This document shows, piece after piece, positions 20,008-36,012 of a DNA stretch of 38,007 nucleotides. This stretch comes from a virus (lineage: Duplodnaviria > Caudoviricetes). The notes below the pieces were generated by a model, which did not search any database, was not told where the DNA came from, and worked only from the letters and a program-made list of their open reading frames with translations. The position numbers and the translations under genes are program-made. The stretch lies in IMG/VR virus record IMGVR_UViG_3300022179_000796, positions 1-38,007 of that record. One strand, written 5' to 3'. How positions within the stretch are numbered: the first letter of the stretch is position 1; every line of letters begins with the position of its first letter.

Positions 20008-20041
20008 AAAGTCTGCAGAAGTCGTCTAAAACACGTTATGC
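20008..20041 (+). other. attI-like recombination site, left array
   Basis: AAAGTCTGCAGAAGTCGTCTAAAACAC-GTTATGC; 31 bp identical to 34670-34700 in inverted orientation; resembles attI1 (GTCGCCCTAAAACAAAGTT). Confidence 0.7.
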
Positions 20042-20506
20042 CGCTTCAGGCGCCCAGGCCGTGAGCGCGAACGCCCGGGGCCTGAACACCACCACGGCGC
20101 TCGGAAAAGGGGCGTTGGCCTCGGCATCGCCAAAGCGCAGCCGCCCGCGCAGCAATCGAACCTCGCCCTTCATCGCGTAGCGGTGCCACCAGTCCGTGTC
20201 GGTGCGGCTCGGCACCAGGCACACAACCGTCGCGCCTTCCTGCGCGGCGCCGTAGGCCTTCCGCATCCAAGCATCGCACTCGCTGTAGGGCGGGTTCATG
20301 AACACTGTCTCCGTGCCCCAGTCGCGCAGCAGGCCGTTCTCTTGGCTGGTGTAGTGCTTGGGCACTTTCTGGTTCGTGCCATCGCTGCATGGGTCCAGCG
20401 TGAAACCGAATTCCTTGTCCAGCGCATCGAACAACCACTGCGGCGTGCTCCACACGTCGGTCTGTGTCTTCCCGCCTGGCGGCAGCAGTATTGAGTCTTG
20501 CAGCAT
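20036..20506 (-). CDS. Phage DNA N6-adenine methyltransferase (Dam family)
   Basis: WSTPQWLFDALDKEFGFTLDPC, NPPY catalytic motif, VCLVPSRTDTDWWH, APFPS. Confidence 0.92.
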   Translation of the reverse strand: MLQDSILLPPGGKTQTDVWSTPQWLFDALDKEFGFTLDPCSDGTNQKVPKHYTSQENGLLRDWGTETVFMNPPYSECDAWMRKAYGAAQEGATVVCLVPSRTDTDWWHRYAMKGEVRLLRGRLRFGDAEANAPFPSAVVVFRPRAFALTAWAPEAA

Positions 20507-20508
20507 GG

Positions 20509-20709
20509 TCAGTACCAAGGGCACTCGGCCCGTTCACCATCAACGCCGCCGCAGCAGCCCTCGTCAGCCCGCGTGCCGCACACGTAGCAGCGCCGCTGCT
20601 CAAAGGCCTGCGCGCGAGCATTTGCGCGTCCATCCACCAGCGGCATAACACGTCGCTCGAAAGGAGCCCCAACGGCTGGCGGCGCCGTGCCTTCTTTATG
20701 TTTGGTCAT
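20509..20709 (-). CDS. Small Cys-rich hypothetical protein starting inside attC L1
   Basis: 66 aa, CYVC...CC...C; ATG lies in the attC loop. Confidence 0.55.
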   Translation of the reverse strand: MTKHKEGTAPPAVGAPFERRVMPLVDGRANARAQAFEQRRCYVCGTRADEGCCGGVDGERAECPWY

Positions 20710-20742
20710 GGCCGTTGTGTCCCTTTCAGCTCTGCGTTATGC
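20643..20742 (+). other. attC-like site L1
   Basis: GCATAAC-acgtc-GCT(C)GAAAGG...CAACGGC/GCCGTTG...CCTTTCAGC-tctgc-GTTATGC: R'', L'' with extra C, L', R'. Confidence 0.85.
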
Positions 20743-21357
20743 AGCAACAGCCGGCGCGCTGACCTTCTGCGCGTCATAGGTGCTGATGGCCCACTGCAGC
20801 GCGTGGCAGCACCACAGGAAACGGTACGTCCACACCTTGCAGTCGCGCTCCCAGTCTTGGAAGCGAAAGCCGTCGTGCTCAAACTCCCACAGCGCCACCC
20901 AGGCATGGTGCTCGCTGTCTTCGGCGGCGGCGCACACCTGTTCGTCAATCTCCTGCCACAGCGCAGCCTTGCGCGGCTCGGGCCAGTCCTCGCTATCGTC
21001 GGTGTGCTGCTCGAAGTAGTCGCGCACCTCGGCTCGAAACTTCTTCTCGCTCCACTCGCGCACGCCGTCGCCTTTGTCGCCGGCTTCCAGCTTCTCGGCC
21101 CAATAGCGCAAGTCAAAGTGGTAAGGCTCGCGGTCCTCCCCGCGCCGGAAGAACCGGAACATGTCTTCCAGCCGCCGGAACACGTAGGTTCCCATATCGC
21201 CCGTGTAGCAAAGGTAGCCCGGCCAGGTCAGCAGGTCGAAGTGCATGCACATCGTATTCGGCCGCTTGAAGCGCAGGTGGCGGCTCACGCCGTCATCGCG
21301 GATCACCTGCATTTGGTGCTGGGCAATGTCACCAGTGAATTGGTCTGCAAAGGTCAT
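20737..21357 (-). CDS. Conserved phage hypothetical protein
   Basis: 206 aa; IRDDGVSRHLRF, FDLLTWPGYLCYTGDMG, YWAEKL; GGAG RBS; stop codon is the TAA of the core site. Confidence 0.85.
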   Translation of the reverse strand: MTFADQFTGDIAQHQMQVIRDDGVSRHLRFKRPNTMCMHFDLLTWPGYLCYTGDMGTYVFRRLEDMFRFFRRGEDREPYHFDLRYWAEKLEAGDKGDGVREWSEKKFRAEVRDYFEQHTDDSEDWPEPRKAALWQEIDEQVCAAAEDSEHHAWVALWEFEHDGFRFQDWERDCKVWTYRFLWCCHALQWAISTYDAQKVSAPAVAA

Positions 21358-21442
21358 CGTGTTTCTCCACCAAGTTGCTGCATAACTGCTCGCTCAAGCG
21401 GGACCTTCGCCGGCAAGCCGGCTCGGCCCCTTAGCTCGGGCG
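20737..21442 (+). mobile_element. Integron-like gene cassette L2
   Basis: Begins GTTATGCAGCAAC (20736-20748); its attC begins with the exact complement GTTGCTGCATAAC (21374-21386). Confidence 0.8.
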
Positions 21443-21448
21443 CTAGGC
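21380..21448 (+). other. attC-like site L2 (69 bp, R' has GCT instead of GTT)
   Basis: GCATAAC-tgctc-GCT(C)AAGCGGGACC..GCCGGC-AA-GCCGGC..GGCCCCTTAGC-tcgggc-GCTAGGC, close to a classical short attC. Confidence 0.85.
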
Positions 21449-21682
21449 GTTCCCGCTGCTCGGCCGCTGCAATTGCATTTCTGCCAGAATCGAGCGCATA
21501 CGGGCGTCAATGGCCTCGTCAAGCGCCGCTTTGAATGCTTCTCCAGACTTGCGGCTAACCTCTGCAAAATGAAAGCCGTGGTATCCCCAGTCGTAACCGT
21601 CATAGCGCTCTCGCGCTTCGGCTTCTTCCGTCTCCGCGCGTAACGTGTCGCGCAGTGCCTGAATCAGTTTCTCTGTGCTCAT
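21443..21682 (-). CDS. Hypothetical protein
   Basis: 79 aa; GAGG RBS; stop TAG lies in the R' of attC L2. Confidence 0.7.
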   Translation of the reverse strand: MSTEKLIQALRDTLRAETEEAEARERYDGYDWGYHGFHFAEVSRKSGEAFKAALDEAIDARMRSILAEMQLQRPSSGNA

Positions 21683-22121: not shown

Positions 22122-22954
22122 TGCGTCGTTACTCCTGCTGCCGCAAACACGCGGCGCTTGTAAACGGGGAACTGCTCCAAGGGATCAGGCTCTCCGAGTC
22201 CCAGCTCAACGCCTTTGGCGATGATTCCGGTGGCGCTCTCGGTCCAGTCTTTCAACTCTTCGGCCACACCCTCGGCTGATCCGTCTTCCCATCTCTTTCC
22301 CCGCAGGTAGACCAGCGGGGCTTCGATGAAGCCTTCCTGCCACTTCTTCGTGCCGCGCTTGGCCCGAACGTCGTCGATGATCAGCGTCTGCACGTTGCCG
22401 AGCGAATGCAGCTTCCAGTGCCGTTGGCACGAGGCTTTGTCCTGCTTGCGTTCGTTCTTCGGCCATGCGGTCCAGAACTCGTCAAACCCTGCGGCAGCGG
22501 GGTGAGAAGGCGAAGCCTTCGATATGTCTTTCTTCTCTTCTCTTCTCTTCTCTTCTCTGGTAGACGCACATGTAGACGCTGTGTCGTCTACTTCTTCGCT
22601 ACCGGATCGTCTCCATCTTGCCTGTCTCTCGCTCTTAAGTGCCCGTTTTTTGGCACTTTCCCCGTTGTGGCGCTGGAAGTTCGGAACCGACACGCGACAA
22701 AGGTCGCTATCGACCAAAAGCCATCCGACAGAAACGAGTGCTGATGCGAAGCCATCTTGATACGCAATGGCGTCTATGTCTGCGTCTACAACACCGTCTA
22801 CAACACCGTCTACGGAGTTCTTGTCGAACCAGCCCCATACGCGAGCCAGCTTCCCGACGACGCAGTCTTTGTCAATTCCAAGCCTTCTAGAGATGCGAAG
22901 CACCTCCGGCTTGTCTGACAAGCTCGTTTCTATCTTGATCCACTCGCCTGCCAT
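22118..22954 (-). CDS. Phage replication initiator / replisome organiser
   Basis: MAGEWIKIE...KPEV, VGKLARVWGWFD, REEKRREEK linker, FDEFWTAWPK...YLRGKRWED. Confidence 0.8.
   Translation of the reverse strand: MAGEWIKIETSLSDKPEVLRISRRLGIDKDCVVGKLARVWGWFDKNSVDGVVDGVVDADIDAIAYQDGFASALVSVGWLLVDSDLCRVSVPNFQRHNGESAKKRALKSERQARWRRSGSEEVDDTASTCASTREEKRREEKKDISKASPSHPAAAGFDEFWTAWPKNERKQDKASCQRHWKLHSLGNVQTLIIDDVRAKRGTKKWQEGFIEAPLVYLRGKRWEDGSAEGVAEELKDWTESATGIIAKGVELGLGEPDPLEQFPVYKRRVFAAAGVTTQ
22560..22813. repeat. Iteron-like GTCTAC repeats (candidate replication origin)
   Basis: GTCTAY at 22772, 22784, 22796, 22808 (12-bp period); GTAGAC at 22560 and 22572; GTCTAC at 22586. Confidence 0.5.
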
Positions 22955-30324: not shown

Positions 30325-30530
30325 CCACCCCCACCAGCCTCAGCGAGCACTTCGAGGCCCACGAAGTCGACCTTCCGCGCGACGTGTCGAAGGCAACGCT
30401 CGAGCGCATCCGCGTCGCGTTCTATGCCGGCGCGCTGGCCGGGCACGTGCTCGGCAGGGCCGGGCCCGAGGCGCGCGACCGCGTGCTCGGCGAGTGCTTG
30501 GACTTCGGGCGCGGCATCGGCCGGCGCTGA
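30321..30530 (+). CDS. Hypothetical protein
   Basis: 69 aa with AFYAGA motif; coupled start. Confidence 0.65.
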   Translation: MTTPTSLSEHFEAHEVDLPRDVSKATLERIRVAFYAGALAGHVLGRAGPEARDRVLGECLDFGRGIGRR

Positions 30531-30562
30531 ACCTTTACCAACCGCCTGAAAGGCACTGACCC

Positions 30563-30982
30563 ATGAACCACATCCAATCCCCTGACACCAGCGACAGCGC
30601 CATCGAGCGCGAAATCAAGGCCAAGGGCCTGACGGCGCCGCGCGTCACGCCAGCCGACATCGAGTCGAACATCGGCAGCGAGCACTACTTCACCGCCTTC
30701 GACGGCGCGATGCACCAGGGCGAGCACTCCAAGTACGCGGGCGACTTCCTCGTGCCGCAGTGCATCGAATCGCTTTCGCTGCTCACTTTCTGCGTGCTGG
30801 TGCTGCGCAACGGCTTCACCGTCACCGGCGAGTCGGCCTGCGCCAGCCCGGTGAACTTCGACGCCGAACTCGGTCGGAAGATCGCTCGCGCGAACGCCGT
30901 GAACAAGGTCTGGCCGCTGATGGGCTACGAGCTGAAGGAGCGGCTGCACCAGATGCAGCAGCCCGCGCAGGCGCCCACCTGA
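30563..30982 (+). CDS. N4 Gp49 / Sf6 gp66 family protein
   Basis: TAPRVTPADIE...LTFCVLVLRNGFTVTGESACASPVNFDAELGRKIAR...WPLMGY. Confidence 0.88.
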   Translation: MNHIQSPDTSDSAIEREIKAKGLTAPRVTPADIESNIGSEHYFTAFDGAMHQGEHSKYAGDFLVPQCIESLSLLTFCVLVLRNGFTVTGESACASPVNFDAELGRKIARANAVNKVWPLMGYELKERLHQMQQPAQAPT

Positions 30983-31149
30983 AGTTCAGGGGCGATCACA
31001 TGGCCGGATCAGCTGTCGACACGCTCGCCAGCCGGCAGACAGACCTATGACGGTGCGCTGACCAGCGGCCCAGGAATGCAGCCCGAAAAGTTGTGAACGC
31101 AGCCTGATCGCCCCTCTCTTTTATCCACCAGCCGAGAAAGGCTCGACCC

Positions 31150-31950
31150 ATGTTCCAACTGATCCAGCCCACGACCGTGAAGCTCATGCACATCAACGTG
31201 CGCACCGAGAAGCACGGACCGGCCGATGTCGACGCGTTCGATCTGGACTTCGCCATCTCGGGCGAGAACCGCAAGGTGCTGGCGCTGCTGCGCCCGGACC
31301 TGTACCGCGCGTTCTACTTCAACGAGGAAGCCGAGGAAGGCCAAGACGAGCTGCCCGAGGTCGACCCCGCGCTGCCCGACCTGAAGTTCCCGAAGCTGGC
31401 TTCGTCCTTCGCCTGGGCCGACGAGGCGACCGGCGTCGACCTGACCGTGATCTACGGCCTCGGCGACGAGGTGTCGAACATCGCGCTCGAAGGCGGCAAG
31501 GCGGCGACGAAGAAGGTCGACCTGATGGACGGCGGCACGTCGGTGCTTGGCTTCAAGTTCTCGATCAGCGGCTATCCCGATGGCGTCATCGACAAGCTGC
31601 GCAAGAAGCTGAAGCAGGACGTGACGATCACGATGGTGCGGCCGGAGAAGCTGCGCGGCGATGCGGTGATCGATGGCACGGTCGGCCACCCGGGCGCGGC
31701 GGCAGCGGCCGAAGGCCAGGGTGACCTGCTCGACGGCGCCGAGACGCCCGAGCAGGCGCTGATGCGGGCGGCTGGCGACGACACCGGCCCCGACCAGCAA
31801 GACGACGGCGCCGATGACGGCGAAGGCAACGCGCCCGACGCCGATGCCGATGCCGATGGCTTCGAGGCTGGCGCCGCGCAGGCCATCGCGGCGGCCGGCG
31901 TGAAGCAGCGCGGTACCGGGGCGAAGCGCGGAAAGGCGGCGCTGCAGTGA
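31150..31950 (+). CDS. Conserved phage hypothetical protein
   Basis: 266 aa; NVRTEKHG motif and acidic C-terminal tail. Confidence 0.75.
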   Translation: MFQLIQPTTVKLMHINVRTEKHGPADVDAFDLDFAISGENRKVLALLRPDLYRAFYFNEEAEEGQDELPEVDPALPDLKFPKLASSFAWADEATGVDLTVIYGLGDEVSNIALEGGKAATKKVDLMDGGTSVLGFKFSISGYPDGVIDKLRKKLKQDVTITMVRPEKLRGDAVIDGTVGHPGAAAAAEGQGDLLDGAETPEQALMRAAGDDTGPDQQDDGADDGEGNAPDADADADGFEAGAAQAIAAAGVKQRGTGAKRGKAALQ

Positions 31951-32183
31951 CCTCCGCCCGCACACGCACCGAGCCAACGAAGCGCGACCTGCAAGTGCTG
32001 CAGTTGGTGCGCCGCCACTATCGCCGCCACGGCTGTGCGCCGACGCGCGCCGAGATCGGCAGCGCGCTGGGCATCAGCCGGCCGACCGCTGACGGCCACT
32101 TGCAGGCGCTGGCACAAAGCGGCCTGGTGGTTCTGCGCAAGGAATGGCGCGGCGTGTACCTCACCAAGAAGGCGGCGTCATGA
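31947..32183 (+). CDS. LexA-type DNA-binding-domain-only protein
   Basis: PTKRDLQVL...APTRAEIGSALGISRPTADGHLQALAQSG...RGV. Confidence 0.8.
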   Translation: MTSARTRTEPTKRDLQVLQLVRRHYRRHGCAPTRAEIGSALGISRPTADGHLQALAQSGLVVLRKEWRGVYLTKKAAS

Positions 32184-32317
32184 GCGCGTGGCTGGCCTGC
32201 ACGCTGCTGTGGCTGGTGGCCATCGCTGCTATCTGGGCCATCGTCGCCATCAACCGGGCGCAGAAGCGCCGCGGGAAGTACGACGCGAGCGATGACAACG
32301 ACCGGGGGATGCGATGA
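32180..32317 (+). CDS. Small membrane protein (45 aa)
   Basis: MSAWLACTLLWLVAIAAIWAIVAI...; ATGA overlaps at both ends. Confidence 0.6.
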   Translation: MSAWLACTLLWLVAIAAIWAIVAINRAQKRRGKYDASDDNDRGMR

Positions 32318-32580
32318 GCAAGAGAGCCAGAGCCTTCAGCCTCGCCCGCGATCTGAAGCACGCCGACTCCGCGTGCTACGGAGATCCGGTGGATGTCGAC
32401 GCGCTCATCTGCGCCAGGGTCGGCGATACCGTTGCCTGCGACGTGCGCGAGCCAGTCGCGGCGACGATCTCGGCGACGCTGGAGACACCGGCAGCGGTGG
32501 CGTATGCGAACCGGCTGTTGCAGGACAAGGGTAGCGGGTGGCGGCTTATGGAGTCGAACGTTGGAGGTAACCGGCAATGA
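32314..32580 (+). CDS. Hypothetical protein ending inside attC R3
   Basis: 88 aa; reads through R' and stops at ATGA 32577-32580. Confidence 0.6.
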   Translation: MSKRARAFSLARDLKHADSACYGDPVDVDALICARVGDTVACDVREPVAATISATLETPAAVAYANRLLQDKGSGWRLMESNVGGNRQ

Positions 32581-32652
32581 CCGGCGTGACCATGCTTGAT
32601 ACCGCGCCACTGCTGAACGCCGGGCATTGTCCGGTTGACCGACCAGTTAGAA
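32553..32652 (-). other. attC-like site R3
   Basis: Minus strand: TTCTAAC-tggtc-GGT(C)AACCGGACAATGCCCGGCGT...ACGCCGGTCATTGCCGGTTACC-tccaac-GTTCGAC. Confidence 0.8.
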
Positions 32653-33535
32653 GGCTGGTGCCGGAGCGTGACCATTTCCGCCTGGATGGGCCGACCAGCA
32701 TCAGCTTCAGCGGCGGCCGGACGAGCGGCTACATGCTGTGGCGCGTGCTGCAGGCCAACGGCGGGCTACCAGCCGACGCGGTGGTTTGCTTCGCCAACAC
32801 CGGCCTTGAAGATGAGGCCACGCTGCGGTTTGTGCGCGACTGCGGCGCGCGGTGGGGCGTGCCGATTACCTGGGTGGAGTACCGCGACGACGCGCAGGGC
32901 TATGCGCTTGTGGACTTCGACACGGCCAGCCGCAACGGCGAGCCGTTCGAGGCCATCATTCGCAAGCGCCGATACCTGCCGAACCCGGTGGCGCGCTTCT
33001 GCACCGTGGAGTTGAAGATTCTGACGATGGAGCGCCACCTGCGCGCCATCGGGTGGGAAGACTGGGATAGCTTCGTCGGCGTGCGAGCCGATGAACCGCG
33101 CCGCGTTGCGAAGATGCGCGCCGACCCGAAGGGCGGCCGAGGCAGCGGCTGGCGTGCGCTACCGCTGGCCGACGCCGGCATTGCAGTTGCGGACGTTGGC
33201 GCCTTTTGGGCCGCGCAGGACTTCGACCTGGAATTGCCGAGTCGCAACGGCCGCACCACGGCAGGGAACTGCGTGCTGTGCTTTCTGAAGCCCGCCGGCC
33301 AGGTGCGCAGCCTGATCGCCGAACGCCCGAGCCGCGCGGTGTGGTGGGTCAAGCAGGAAGACTACGCCGCAGCGAATTTCGTTGAACGCAAGAGCGGCGG
33401 CGCGTGGCGCTTCCGCATGGACCGCGACAGCTACGCCGGCATGGCAAGCGCTGCCGCGAATCAGACCGACGCATTCGGCCACGAAGACGAGGAAGCGCTG
33501 GCGTGCTTCTGCGGCGAGTAGCGGATGCCTTCTAA
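32559..33535 (-). mobile_element. Integron-like gene cassette R3 (PAPS reductase family gene)
   Basis: GTTAGAAGGC (32646-32655) and GCCTTCTAAC (33527-33536) are exact complements. Confidence 0.8.
32577..33521 (+). CDS. PAPS reductase-family (PP-loop) protein
   Basis: SFSGGRTSGYM, FANTGLE, RFCTVELK, GVRADE, GNCVLCFLK, C-terminal CFCGE. Confidence 0.88.
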   Translation: MTGVTMLDTAPLLNAGHCPVDRPVRRLVPERDHFRLDGPTSISFSGGRTSGYMLWRVLQANGGLPADAVVCFANTGLEDEATLRFVRDCGARWGVPITWVEYRDDAQGYALVDFDTASRNGEPFEAIIRKRRYLPNPVARFCTVELKILTMERHLRAIGWEDWDSFVGVRADEPRRVAKMRADPKGGRGSGWRALPLADAGIAVADVGAFWAAQDFDLELPSRNGRTTAGNCVLCFLKPAGQVRSLIAERPSRAVWWVKQEDYAAANFVERKSGGAWRFRMDRDSYAGMASAAANQTDAFGHEDEEALACFCGE

Positions 33536-33615
33536 CGTTGCAATTAACCGGCGCGCGTGACGACTTAAACGAAGCGTGCCGGCCGTTGCGCGTCCGGTTG
33601 AATTGCGTGTTAGGG
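33530..33615 (-). other. attC-like site R2
   Basis: Minus strand: CCCTAAC-acgca-ATT(C)AACCGGACGCGC...GCGCGCCGGTTAAT-tgcaac-GTTAGAA; 82/83 identical to attC R1. Confidence 0.88.
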
Positions 33616-33630
33616 CGCACGCGAAAGTGC

Positions 33631-33659
33631 TTGCGTGACGTGTCACGATGAGCGATACT
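33631..33659 (+). promoter_or_regulatory. Cassette-internal promoter with palindromic operator
   Basis: TTGCGT-17 bp-GATACT; CGTGAC-GT-GTCACG palindrome overlaps -35 and spacer. Confidence 0.6.
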
Positions 33660-33698
33660 GTAGCCACTGCGGCACGGTGCGGCAGAAGGAGAACAGCG

Positions 33699-33941
33699 AT
33701 GCAAGTTGAATTGACAAAGAGCCTGAAGCGCCAGCGCGCAGCCCTGCAAGTGGAGCCGATCCATGTGCAGGCCGAACCCGTGCGCGCCTACGCGAAGCAG
33801 ATTGCCGAACTGAAGGGCGAGCCATTCAGCGTGGTGACAGTGCCTGATGGCTCTGCGGCGCACCGCATGGGCTACAGGTTCGTGTCGATCCCTGACAGCG
33901 AACTGGCGCACTACCTGGCGAACGGCGCCACGCTGGCATGA
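33699..33941 (+). CDS. Hypothetical protein (cassette R2)
   Basis: AAGGAG RBS, 80 aa. Confidence 0.7.
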   Translation: MQVELTKSLKRQRAALQVEPIHVQAEPVRAYAKQIAELKGEPFSVVTVPDGSAAHRMGYRFVSIPDSELAHYLANGATLA

Positions 33942-34141
33942 GCCCCGATCAGCTTTCTTACGTCGCCAAGGTCGAAGCCGAGTGCCGCGCCGCCTTTGAC
34001 ACCGAGTTCTACAAGATTCGCGCGACCATGACCTATGACCAATGGCGTGTTGCGTTCAAGGTCGGCTGGCGTTGCGGGCGCGAAGATGCGCACCGCGATT
34101 GGGCCGACCACATGGCGCGCATGGCTCAGGCGGCCAAATGA
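33938..34141 (+). CDS. Hypothetical protein (cassette R2)
   Basis: 67 aa, ATGA-coupled. Confidence 0.7.
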   Translation: MSPDQLSYVAKVEAECRAAFDTEFYKIRATMTYDQWRVAFKVGWRCGREDAHRDWADHMARMAQAAK

Positions 34142-34311
34142 GCCCAGCCAAGACAGCCGCAGAGCGCAAAGCCGACGAGCGGCAGCGCCACAAGGAAGCC
34201 GGGCGCACTGCGGTGACAGTGCATGTGCGCCCTGAGTACGCGCCCGAAGTGCGGGCACTGGAAGCGAAGTTGCAGCGCCGCGAGAACCGCAAGCGTGGCC
34301 CTGCGCCCTAA
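34138..34311 (+). CDS. Small basic putative DNA-binding protein (RHH-like, cassette R2)
   Basis: KTAAERKADERQRHKEAGRTAVTVHV...; stop is the core-site TAA. Confidence 0.6.
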   Translation: MSPAKTAAERKADERQRHKEAGRTAVTVHVRPEYAPEVRALEAKLQRRENRKRGPAP

Positions 34312-34391
34312 CGTTGCAATTAACCGGCGCGCGTGACGACTTAAACGAAGCGTGCCGGCCGTTGCGCGTCCGGTTGAATTGCGGGTTAGGC
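34306..34391 (-). other. attC-like site R1
   Basis: Minus strand: GCCTAAC-ccgca-ATT(C)AACCGG...CCGGTTAAT-tgcaac-GTTAGGG. Confidence 0.88.
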
Positions 34392-34672
34392 CACAACAAG
34401 GATAAGTTGACATGGGATGCAAGAGATGCGGAAGCTACGCCATAAACCACCACTGCCACGGCAGAGATGGCGGCGACAAAGACTTGTGCGACGTTTGCTT
34501 TTGGCGCAAGCGCGCAGAAGCCGCCACCGATGCACTGAAGACGGCCGAGGCCGCGCTGGCAGACATTGGTGACGCAGACAGAGAGCCGGGCGACGACCTT
34601 GCATGGTGCGAGGCGCGTGCCGCGCAAGACTTACCCACTGTGCGCGCCACGCTGGCGGGCCTTGTGGCCTAA
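34312..34672 (-). mobile_element. Integron-like gene cassette R1
   Basis: GTTAGGCCACAA (34385-34396) and TTGCGG-free exact complement TTGTGGCCTAAC (34662-34673). Confidence 0.8.
34412..34672 (+). CDS. Hypothetical Zn-binding protein (cassette R1)
   Basis: CKRCGSYAINHHCH...LCDVCFW; stop is the core-site TAA. Confidence 0.75.
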   Translation: MGCKRCGSYAINHHCHGRDGGDKDLCDVCFWRKRAEAATDALKTAEAALADIGDADREPGDDLAWCEARAAQDLPTVRATLAGLVA

Positions 34673-34700
34673 CGTGTTTTAGACGACTTCTGCAGACTTT
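34667..34700 (-). other. attI-like recombination site, right array
   Basis: Minus strand: AAAGTCTGCAGAAGTCGTCTAAAACAC-GTTAGGC; no partner hairpin arm. Confidence 0.7.
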
Positions 34701-35000
34701 ATGCGACCGCGAATCACATCACAGCAGCGCTACAGAGCTGCAGAAGTGCACGCGCAGCACGAGCGCGACGACGGCATCTACGACCGTCCAGCGTTTGAGG
34801 ACTGTCGCCAGCCATTCGCCCTGCCTCTTGCGGCTGCCGGATGGCGCGATCTGACCATTGAGCCGCGTCTTGGCTATGTAGCCTGGCGCGCTGTCGATAC
34901 AGAGACTGGCGAGGTTCTTCACTGCGCCGCGCTGAAAGAACTGCTGCGATGGGTGGCCACGCAAATGCCGAGGATGCTGGCGGCGAGGAACTTTCAGTGA
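34701..35000 (+). CDS. Hypothetical protein
   Basis: 99 aa starting immediately after the attI-like site. Confidence 0.6.
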   Translation: MRPRITSQQRYRAAEVHAQHERDDGIYDRPAFEDCRQPFALPLAAAGWRDLTIEPRLGYVAWRAVDTETGEVLHCAALKELLRWVATQMPRMLAARNFQ

Positions 35001-35227
35001 TGCCCCGCCTACTCACGCGGGCCCGAGACGCCATCCTGCAGCGCCGCTACGCGCCTCGCCCGCACAAGCCGGTGCGCGCCGCCTGCCTGTGGCGCGAGGG
35101 CAGCGGCTGGATGCGCATGCTGACGGGGCATGCCAGCCAGTCGAAGAGCCTGGGCGGATTGCTGTATCGGCGGCGGGTGCGCCTGGTGCGGCGGTTCGGG
35201 TTGTCAGCGTTTTTGAGGCGCGACTGA
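35000..35227 (+). CDS. Hypothetical Arg-rich protein
   Basis: TGATG-coupled to the previous ORF. Confidence 0.4.
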   Translation: MPRLLTRARDAILQRRYAPRPHKPVRAACLWREGSGWMRMLTGHASQSKSLGGLLYRRRVRLVRRFGLSAFLRRD

Positions 35228-36012
35228 ATGTGTTGACGAAGGCGGACCCGAGGCTGTTGGTGCTGGCGCGGAGCCAATGCGAGATGCGAACCGGGCAGAG
35301 CCCCGCCGAACAGGAGCGATGATGAAGTCGAGCGGTTGCGGGCGCAGCTACTTGCGATTGCCGATGCAGCACGCGAGAGCCCATATCGAGCGGCGGCAGC
35401 TTGGGATGATGCGCTAGCGAAGATGATTGCCAGGAGCACGGAGTTCATGAAGTGAGCTACACTATGCGCGCCCTAGTCGCGCGAGTGGATGCCGACCGAT
35501 TCGCTACCGTAAGTAGCGGCCTCACGGGAGCGCGTGCATGGCGCTCGATGGGCAGCACGCCGCCCGCATGTCGAGCGCTCCCGTGAGGGGTCAAACCGCG
35601 ATGGTTCGCGGAACAGCAGGTCGCGACTGTAACGCCGCCGTCAGCGGACACACGATGACGGCATCCGTTCGATTCGGATGAGACTCCCTCAACTAGCGCT
35701 GAGTACCCGACGTTTACGCAGTCTCTGGCTGTATCGCGACGCTGGGCTCGGATGACCGCCCGGGAATAGACCGGGATATACACGGTAAACCGTGTGGCAG
35801 TCGGGAGAGACCGACCTATCACCCAACTCTAACCAGCTTCTCCCGCTGCCCATCATCAGGCAGTAGATCGCGTACCAGCTTCTCAAGCGCCAGAAGCTCA
35901 CGCTGCACCACTTCGCGCGATAGGCTGAACTGGCACAAGCTGACATCTGCCCGATGCCTTGGACCTACGCGCCAGGTCCAGAAGTGCCGAGGGGGTAGCG
36001 GGTCGCCCATGA

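Follow-up and report, generated by a model that had tools for sequence, protein, structure and literature searches.

An integron-type cassette array with reversed genes and an attI-like dock in a phage genome

Integrons are known from bacteria, and anti-phage genes are among those that their cassettes carry. What, then, is a row of three units, each with its own pair of complementary ends, at the end of the rightward early operon of a phage? The DNA analyzed here (the window) is a linear record of 38,007 bp representing a whole virus genome. CheckV gives the contig a completeness of 100%; a terminal repeat was looked for and none was found, so a missing piece carrying a recombinase is possible despite that value. 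A PHROGs scan of the 61 ORFs identified terminase, portal, capsid, ejection, replication initiator, RecE/RecT, NinB, and NinG genes, with no integrase among the matches, and Rfam matched nothing in the window. Our answer, which we consider probable, is that the units form an integron-type phage array: three cassettes, carrying five accessory genes, at an attI-like dock, with genes antisense to the recombination sites, no integrase found, and shuffling performed by the IntI of the host. The features of the locus are as follows.

32314..32580, + strand: distal flanking gene, 88 aa, no family
32553..32652, - strand (canonical top strand): attC1, 100 bp
32559..33535: cassette 1, 10-nt complementary ends
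32577..33521, + strand: PAPS-reductase-family ORF (phrog_424, E 1e-48; PADLOC SspD, E 5e-11)
33530..33615, - strand: attC2, 86 bp
33536..34311: cassette 2, 11-nt complementary ends, two cargo ORFs and a conserved last gene
33631..33659, + strand: hexamers of a putative promoter with a 17-nt spacing (a sequence reading; unchanged in L249)
33634-33647: 14-nt palindrome, candidate operator, identical in L249
33699..33941, + strand: cargo ORF a, 80 aa, no family
33938..34141, + strand: cargo ORF b, 67 aa, no family
34138..34311, + strand: conserved 57-aa gene, stop codon within the R' core
34306..34391, - strand: attC3, 86 bp
34312..34672: cassette 3, adjoining the dock, 12-nt complementary ends
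34412-34672: ORF of 86 aa with a cysteine-rich N-terminus, stop codon within the R' core
34673..34700, - strand: attI-like dock, not a hairpin
34701..35000, + strand: conserved gene directly past the dock, 99 aa, no family

Cassette ends, hairpins, and gene orientation

The original prediction held that each unit is bracketed by its own exact inverted pair, as would be left by integration of circles through crossover at G/TT, and this account of the ends was confirmed. The six end motifs lie at 32646/33527, 33609/34302, and 34385/34662, each occurring once per orientation, and the borders of the three cassettes coincide with exact AA|C points. As predicted, the outer arms of the linear hairpins, which match over 3, 5, and 6 nt, pair less well than the two ends of a single cassette (10, 11, and 12 nt); when the circularised junctions were folded with DNA parameters, they reached -33.3, -33.6, and -33.3 kcal/mol, against -25.0, -24.4, and -24.3 kcal/mol for the linear forms. 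Bacterial integron cassettes adjoining intI exhibit the same signature, their own ends matching better than the linear arms in 66 of 86 and worse in five, which supports crossover at G/TT and circle integration. One complementary-end pair alone is within chance: the window contains nine GTT...AAC pairs of at least 10 nt spaced 100-3000 bp apart (mean 1.67, maximum 7 in 300 shuffles), five of them cassette ends and four unrelated. The end signature is an ordinary integron scar, and in this respect the earlier interpretation was incomplete; the unusual features, namely gene reversal, a dock resembling attI, and the lack of an integrase, were all absent from it.

The hairpins were scored with an attC detector made for this analysis (maximum score 12), which called the expected polarity in 109 of 110 cases across 20 regions adjoining intI. 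All three score 12/12, while no site in 100 shuffled windows reached 12, placing the hairpins beyond chance. As given in the available text of PMC5027507, attC sites consist of R and L boxes, spacers, and two extrahelical bases, with G16 and a T at 23/24 on the bottom strand and a 6-bp stem between them. Each hairpin has R'' and R' cores with the AAC/GTT triplet and an AA|C crossover point, L''/L' boxes paired at 7/7 positions, and unpaired spacers of 5 and 6 nt; the lengths (100, 86, and 86 bp) lie within the 57-141 bp range of attC sites, and the distal R' of the array is non-canonical past its GTT. Folds of the + strand leave a T and a G unpaired six pairs apart in all three (z -3.5 for attC1). 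Because the extrahelical G and T sit there, the coding + strand corresponds to the recombining bottom strand, and the hairpins have the anatomy of attC sites whose polarity is opposite to that of the genes. The reading of the hairpins as terminators or REP-like repeats, already disfavored in the original prediction, is ruled out by this strand-specific anatomy and by the borders falling at the cores.

All of the genes face the opposite way to those of bacterial cassettes: they lie on the bottom strand rather than on the top strand upstream of their attC, and they point to the dock, so that none is placed to be read from a Pc in attI. Among the 86 bacterial cassettes adjoining intI, long ORFs ending at the core were sense in 42 and antisense in eight. 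We assembled a set of 44 phage cassettes with an own-end match of at least 7, of which 43 had ORFs on both sides; PHROGs matches fell on the antisense ORF in nine of the 43 and on the sense ORF in none, and the own ends were complementary in 35 of 43. We also considered top-strand insertion of bacterial cassettes, which would invert the attC together with the gene; here the attC sites are canonical to the dock, and this candidate was rejected. Separately, an SD-like motif and ATG facing the gene occur in 15 of 46 hairpin interiors, attC1 among them, a count given without a control.

At the distal border, the flanking gene crosses the array boundary (32558/32559) and ends within attC1, and its stop codon overlaps an ATG in frame with the PAPS gene. 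The gene has a single viral homologue locus (L270, 76%), where it likewise extends into the distal attC of another reversed array. When the array was removed in silico, the upstream ORF (from 32314) terminated after 84 codons at a stop within the dock, so an empty site would keep the upstream gene intact. In arrays of the window, G002, G305, G309, and L270, the bases that follow the last attC at the distal end often form a non-canonical core (GTTC... or GTTAC...), perhaps what is left of the site originally targeted.

The dock and the missing integrase

At the head of the array lies a 28-base site that resembles an attI in sequence and position. Identical bases recur at 20008-20035, where they head a second, left array (20008-21450), also with antisense genes; it contains a methyltransferase-like cassette with 11-nt ends (a label that we presume from recognised motifs and that has no family match), a phrog_4657 cassette with 13-nt ends, and a degenerate third hairpin at ~21384-21446. 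We built a dock matrix from seven bacterial cores adjoining intI, leaving out genomes first met through the dock pattern. Under it, the window docks take the top two places among 1002 GTT sites, scoring 9.0 against 7.1 for the next site, a small margin from a matrix of just seven cores. The docks of three other phages (G002, G309, and G304) rank first, and those of L270, G308, and G310 rank 5, 8, and 21, respectively, while two further G310 docks (ranks 330 and 430) lie outside the matrix fit. Two further arrays of G310 (14379 and 26403) start at a site of another kind, short and hairpin-like, that falls outside the attI matrix.

In bacteria, a loosened dock pattern matched four of 301 genomes of the Rhodoferax G001 family, one match lying beside a full intI (466.8 bits), one beside a 5' fragment of intI, and one at the head of a sense array. 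G121 has a core near-identical to the dock beside a full intI; in its family, to which G001 also belongs, intI scores above the cut-off in 79 of 201 genomes. In exact searches of viral contigs, the 23-mer of the dock had no match and its 17-mer had one, which looks like chance. The 17-mer gave 57 metagenome and 13 genome matches, of which only six metagenome loci share an attI-like upstream region; intI is absent from the stretches examined at those six. At L005, L012, and L043-L046, on bacterial-looking metagenome contigs, sense arrays are headed by a conserved region of ~150 bp whose end is the same attI core; the upstream genes vary, and the DNA examined contains no intI.

No intI adjoins the dock as it would in a complete integron. 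Within the window, PF00589 matched nothing, nor did tblastn searches with IntI or two phage integrases. With three attC sites in 1.9 kb and no integrase, the locus falls into the CALIN class. Could another enzyme work on these sites? According to the available text of PMC5027507, the host tyrosine recombinases XerC/D are able to recombine single-stranded substrates, and an ordinary phage integrase lies just past the dock in three relatives (G309, L270, and the G178 contig). We regard a tyrosine recombinase other than IntI, whether XerC/D or a phage integrase, as improbable, since the two of those three phage integrases that were scored fall far below the TIGR02249 cut-off, PF00589 is unmatched in six of seven other array-bearing phage records as well as in the window, and the hairpins and dock are like those of integrons that bear IntI.

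Exchange of cassettes and hairpin interiors

The original prediction expected the cassettes to recur with different neighbors in other phages, and this was borne out for cassettes 1 and 2 and not for cassette 3. For cassette 1, we retained 80 loci from 498 relatives of the PAPS gene. One of these, L101 (contig G304), is a cassette: its gene is 63% identical, with the same 10-nt ends, similar attC arms, and a separate dock of its own. The other 79 are not cassettes, including the closest relative (L072; 93% aa identity and 89% nt identity over 830 bp), an ordinary operon gene in phage G002, which bears a 13-cassette reversed array at another place. A quick tree of 68 rows places the window protein as sister to L072, and grouping the two cassette forms as a clade was rejected (p-AU 2e-5, 13 of 81 sequences); this result implies that either (i) the PAPS gene switched state at least two times, or (ii) its coding sequence was swapped within an old shell. 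The start of the ORF is uncertain, being either ATG 32577, which lies within attC1 and is preceded by GGAGG, or GTG 32658. The gene exists both as a cassette and as an ordinary operon gene at 93% identity. By what route genes turn into cassettes has long been an open question, for which one gene in both states, along with hairpins that change partners (see below), provides natural substrates.

The body of cassette 2 recurs in phage G305 (L249) at 89-93% nt identity, with different neighbors and a different hairpin interior. The homology spans cassette position 74, at the GTT core, to position 776, at the AA|C point, halting at the cores, a pattern that argues for movement of cassette 2 as a unit. 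Cargo ORF a has one viral homologue locus (90%), and the ESM Atlas yielded nothing usable for this 80-aa protein. Copies of an 8-nt direct repeat stand on either side of the 200 bp that hold cargo ORF b, a stretch missing from the G305 copy, which shows that microhomology recombination acts here too. In contigs of four public runs, pieces match both cassette-2 ends with joints that skip 445-476 bases of cargo, and loose contig ends break at 33609 and 34313-34315; no contig of these runs spans the array, and neither a circle nor an empty site of the phage was seen. Because the cargo varies between kept ends, cassette 2 looks like a chassis consisting of a putative promoter with a palindrome, variable cargo, and the 57-aa gene. 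A consensus promoter scan of 30500-36000 called none, the hexamers listed above included.

The 57-aa gene has 164 related clusters. Its product shows a weak MazE-like Pfam match in four of 47 members (best E 0.014), and the predicted model consists of two helices for which fold searches were uninformative, with no match above Z 3.5; the product is likely a small autorepressor. Among 401 bacterial genomes of the family, the gene was found in one (G178), where it sits on a phage-like contig of 5.3 kb that also carries a reversed array and a phage integrase; intI is on another contig of this genome, an assignment in which binning may err. Among cultured phages, the 99-aa and 57-aa proteins were unmatched, and the array gave four short gene-level matches. 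In acr-aca operons, a repressor of an Aca family (HTH or ribbon-helix-helix) binds a promoter palindrome, and the cargo inhibits CRISPR-Cas or another defence. Cassette 2 resembles them in its own putative promoter and palindrome, its small and variable cargo, and the small conserved gene at its end; it differs in that no Acr or Aca family match was obtained for its proteins, the fold search was uninformative, and the role of the cargo is putative. A second promoter-cargo-small-repressor chassis was observed at G002:26806-27477 and G310:14379-14908, with both ends 91-93% identical, cargo and attC interiors that differ, and the end GTTAGGGCGC in common with cassette 2.

For cassette 3, none of 30 homologue loci is a cassette, most matching residues 41-81 only. 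The outcome that the original prediction had named as counting against it, a gene never bounded by these cores elsewhere, was therefore what we observed for the Zn gene, and the case for mobility of cassette 3 is anatomical. The label "Zn protein" derives from the cysteines and from a match to PF14206 below the cut-off (E 0.0047).

The array as a whole varies between phages. The gene after the dock has three viral homologue loci, and each shows a related dock immediately before that gene, the arrays holding 7, 4, and 10 attC sites; in L270, where the shared gene is the one before the array, a reversed array made of two other cassettes adjoins it. Thus, all four phage loci with a common flanking gene have reversed arrays of other cassettes, and the locus is a variable slot. 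Comparison of the 44 cassette bodies found only three related pairs, and blastn gave no match between the window cassettes and the bacterial integron loci examined. The hairpin interiors switch partners. Those of attC2 and attC3 are alike at 78 of 79 nt around unrelated bodies, and a sequence pattern made from these interiors matched nothing in viral contigs; the G305 copy of cassette 2 has an interior that differs from that in the window and is identical to another within the G305 array; and the second body, common to G002 and G310, also differs in its interiors. Overall, near-identical interiors occur in two of 169 pairs within genomes and two of 866 between genomes; two near-identical bodies found in more than one phage carry different interiors, and four near-identical interior pairs carry different bodies. 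Either (i) interior exchange at R'' via the top strand, a disfavored reaction (PMC5027507, available text), or (ii) RecT-type microhomology would yield this pattern.

This raises the question of whether RecE/RecT might account for the whole array by shuffling linker-bounded modules through short core homology, with no site-specific recombinase. RecE- and RecT-like proteins are encoded in the window, cargo ORF b was gained or lost at a direct repeat, and both the cargo swaps within the cassette-2 ends and the exchange of PAPS alleles resemble homologous recombination. Such shuffling leaves unexplained (i) the strand-specific extrahelical bases and spacers, (ii) intact arm pairing despite very different interiors, (iii) the complementary own ends of most phage cassettes, and (iv) an attI-like dock kept at orthologous loci, and we judge it as unlikely an explanation as a tyrosine recombinase other than IntI. 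Least probable of all, to the point of being largely refuted by the variable content at the orthologous locus, is the view of the array as an inert remnant of a single capture of host integron DNA. Prophages do capture such pieces (PMC9892861, available text), and no activity of the array was seen; yet its cargo consists of antisense, phage-type genes that differ from those of host cassettes, the genome has two copies of the dock, unrelated arrays occupy orthologous loci, and the putative repressor gene of cassette 2 was found in just one of the 401 family genomes, on a phage-like contig.

Proposed mechanism and relation to known systems

We return to shuffling by host IntI. The attC anatomy, the likeness of the dock to cores adjoining intI, the reversed genes, and the cassette exchange bordered at the cores can be read directly from the DNA; the steps that follow are a proposal. 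Phage replication would expose the + (coding) strand, which would fold, and host IntI, acting on the replicating phage DNA, would cut the folded strand at AA|C. Recombination of attC x attC would release cassettes as circles, and attC x attI would bring them in at the dock, adding new cassettes at the promoter-distal end of the early operon. Their genes would be read from the upstream phage promoter or, in cassette 2, from the putative internal one, and hence no Pc would be needed. IntI is SOS-regulated (PMC5027507; PMC8618304, available text). At 22560-22808 the replication gene contains iteron-like repeats; if this is a bidirectional origin, both arrays would have their bottom strand on the lagging template, which favors excision (PMC5371416; PMC11023631, available text). 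Cumulative GC skew falls to 22-24 kb, is flat, and turns at ~31 kb, leaving the origin unfixed and giving this arrangement partial support only. Six of the 14 GTCTAC/GTAGAC repeats in the window lie at 22560-22808, and two such repeats resemble the attI core adjoining intI in G056 and G108.

A bolder extension, which we offer tentatively and consider rather doubtful, is that the gene body and the hairpin interior are separate modules swapped at both IntI cut points, so that phage arrays make and remake cassettes, bodies flip from antisense to sense, and phages are a source of integron cassettes while using the anti-phage shuffler of the host for counter-defence genes. As the body is symmetric at its ends, cutting at R'' and R' would flip a phage antisense cassette into a bacterial sense cassette.

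How does this array relate to systems already described? The available text of Qi et al. (2023) reports 17 CALINs in 10,705 phage genomes and activity of IntI1 on five phage attC sites (PMC9892861). Those CALINs are likewise attC clusters in phages without an integrase, their cargo includes DNA-modification genes, and one Shewanella prophage has an attI heading its CALIN. In contrast, that text describes neither systematic antisense genes nor a phage-kept dock at orthologous loci, although the figures or annotation may show polarity; it calls two CALINs typical in layout and proposes capture by off-target recombination (PMC9892861). Sedentary chromosomal integrons (the Rhodoferax G001 family; TIGR02249) share with the phage array the attC anatomy, arm types, complementary-end scar, and a similar attI core; they differ in having intI beside attI and mostly sense genes (42 vs 8), whereas the phage array has no intI, antisense genes, and transcription toward the dock. 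IntI also inserts cassettes at GWT sites outside integrons (attG; 10.1101/2022.09.11.507474, available text). The distal border of the phage array, a non-canonical GTT site, is similar to such insertions, while its proximal site is a 28-bp duplicated, conserved attI-like dock rather than a bare triplet.

In the literature searched, which covers few subscription papers, we found no description of phage arrays that combine reversed genes and a conserved dock. As far as these sources extend, attC clusters in phages are known, and the reversed genes and the conserved phage dock are new. On its sequence features, the array would work like an integron yet is not a complete one; it is a well-supported variant of the integron cassette system. 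With a docking site of its own, kept at one locus and filled with reversed cassettes, a phage family would exploit a host enzyme for its accessory genes. A bacterial integron encountered in the survey (L207, G100:C26) carries many near-identical 198-bp cassettes, mostly without an ORF of 35 codons. The phage cargo set includes methyltransferase, Mom-like, and SspD-like matches, and the arrays thereby mark candidate counter-defence genes.
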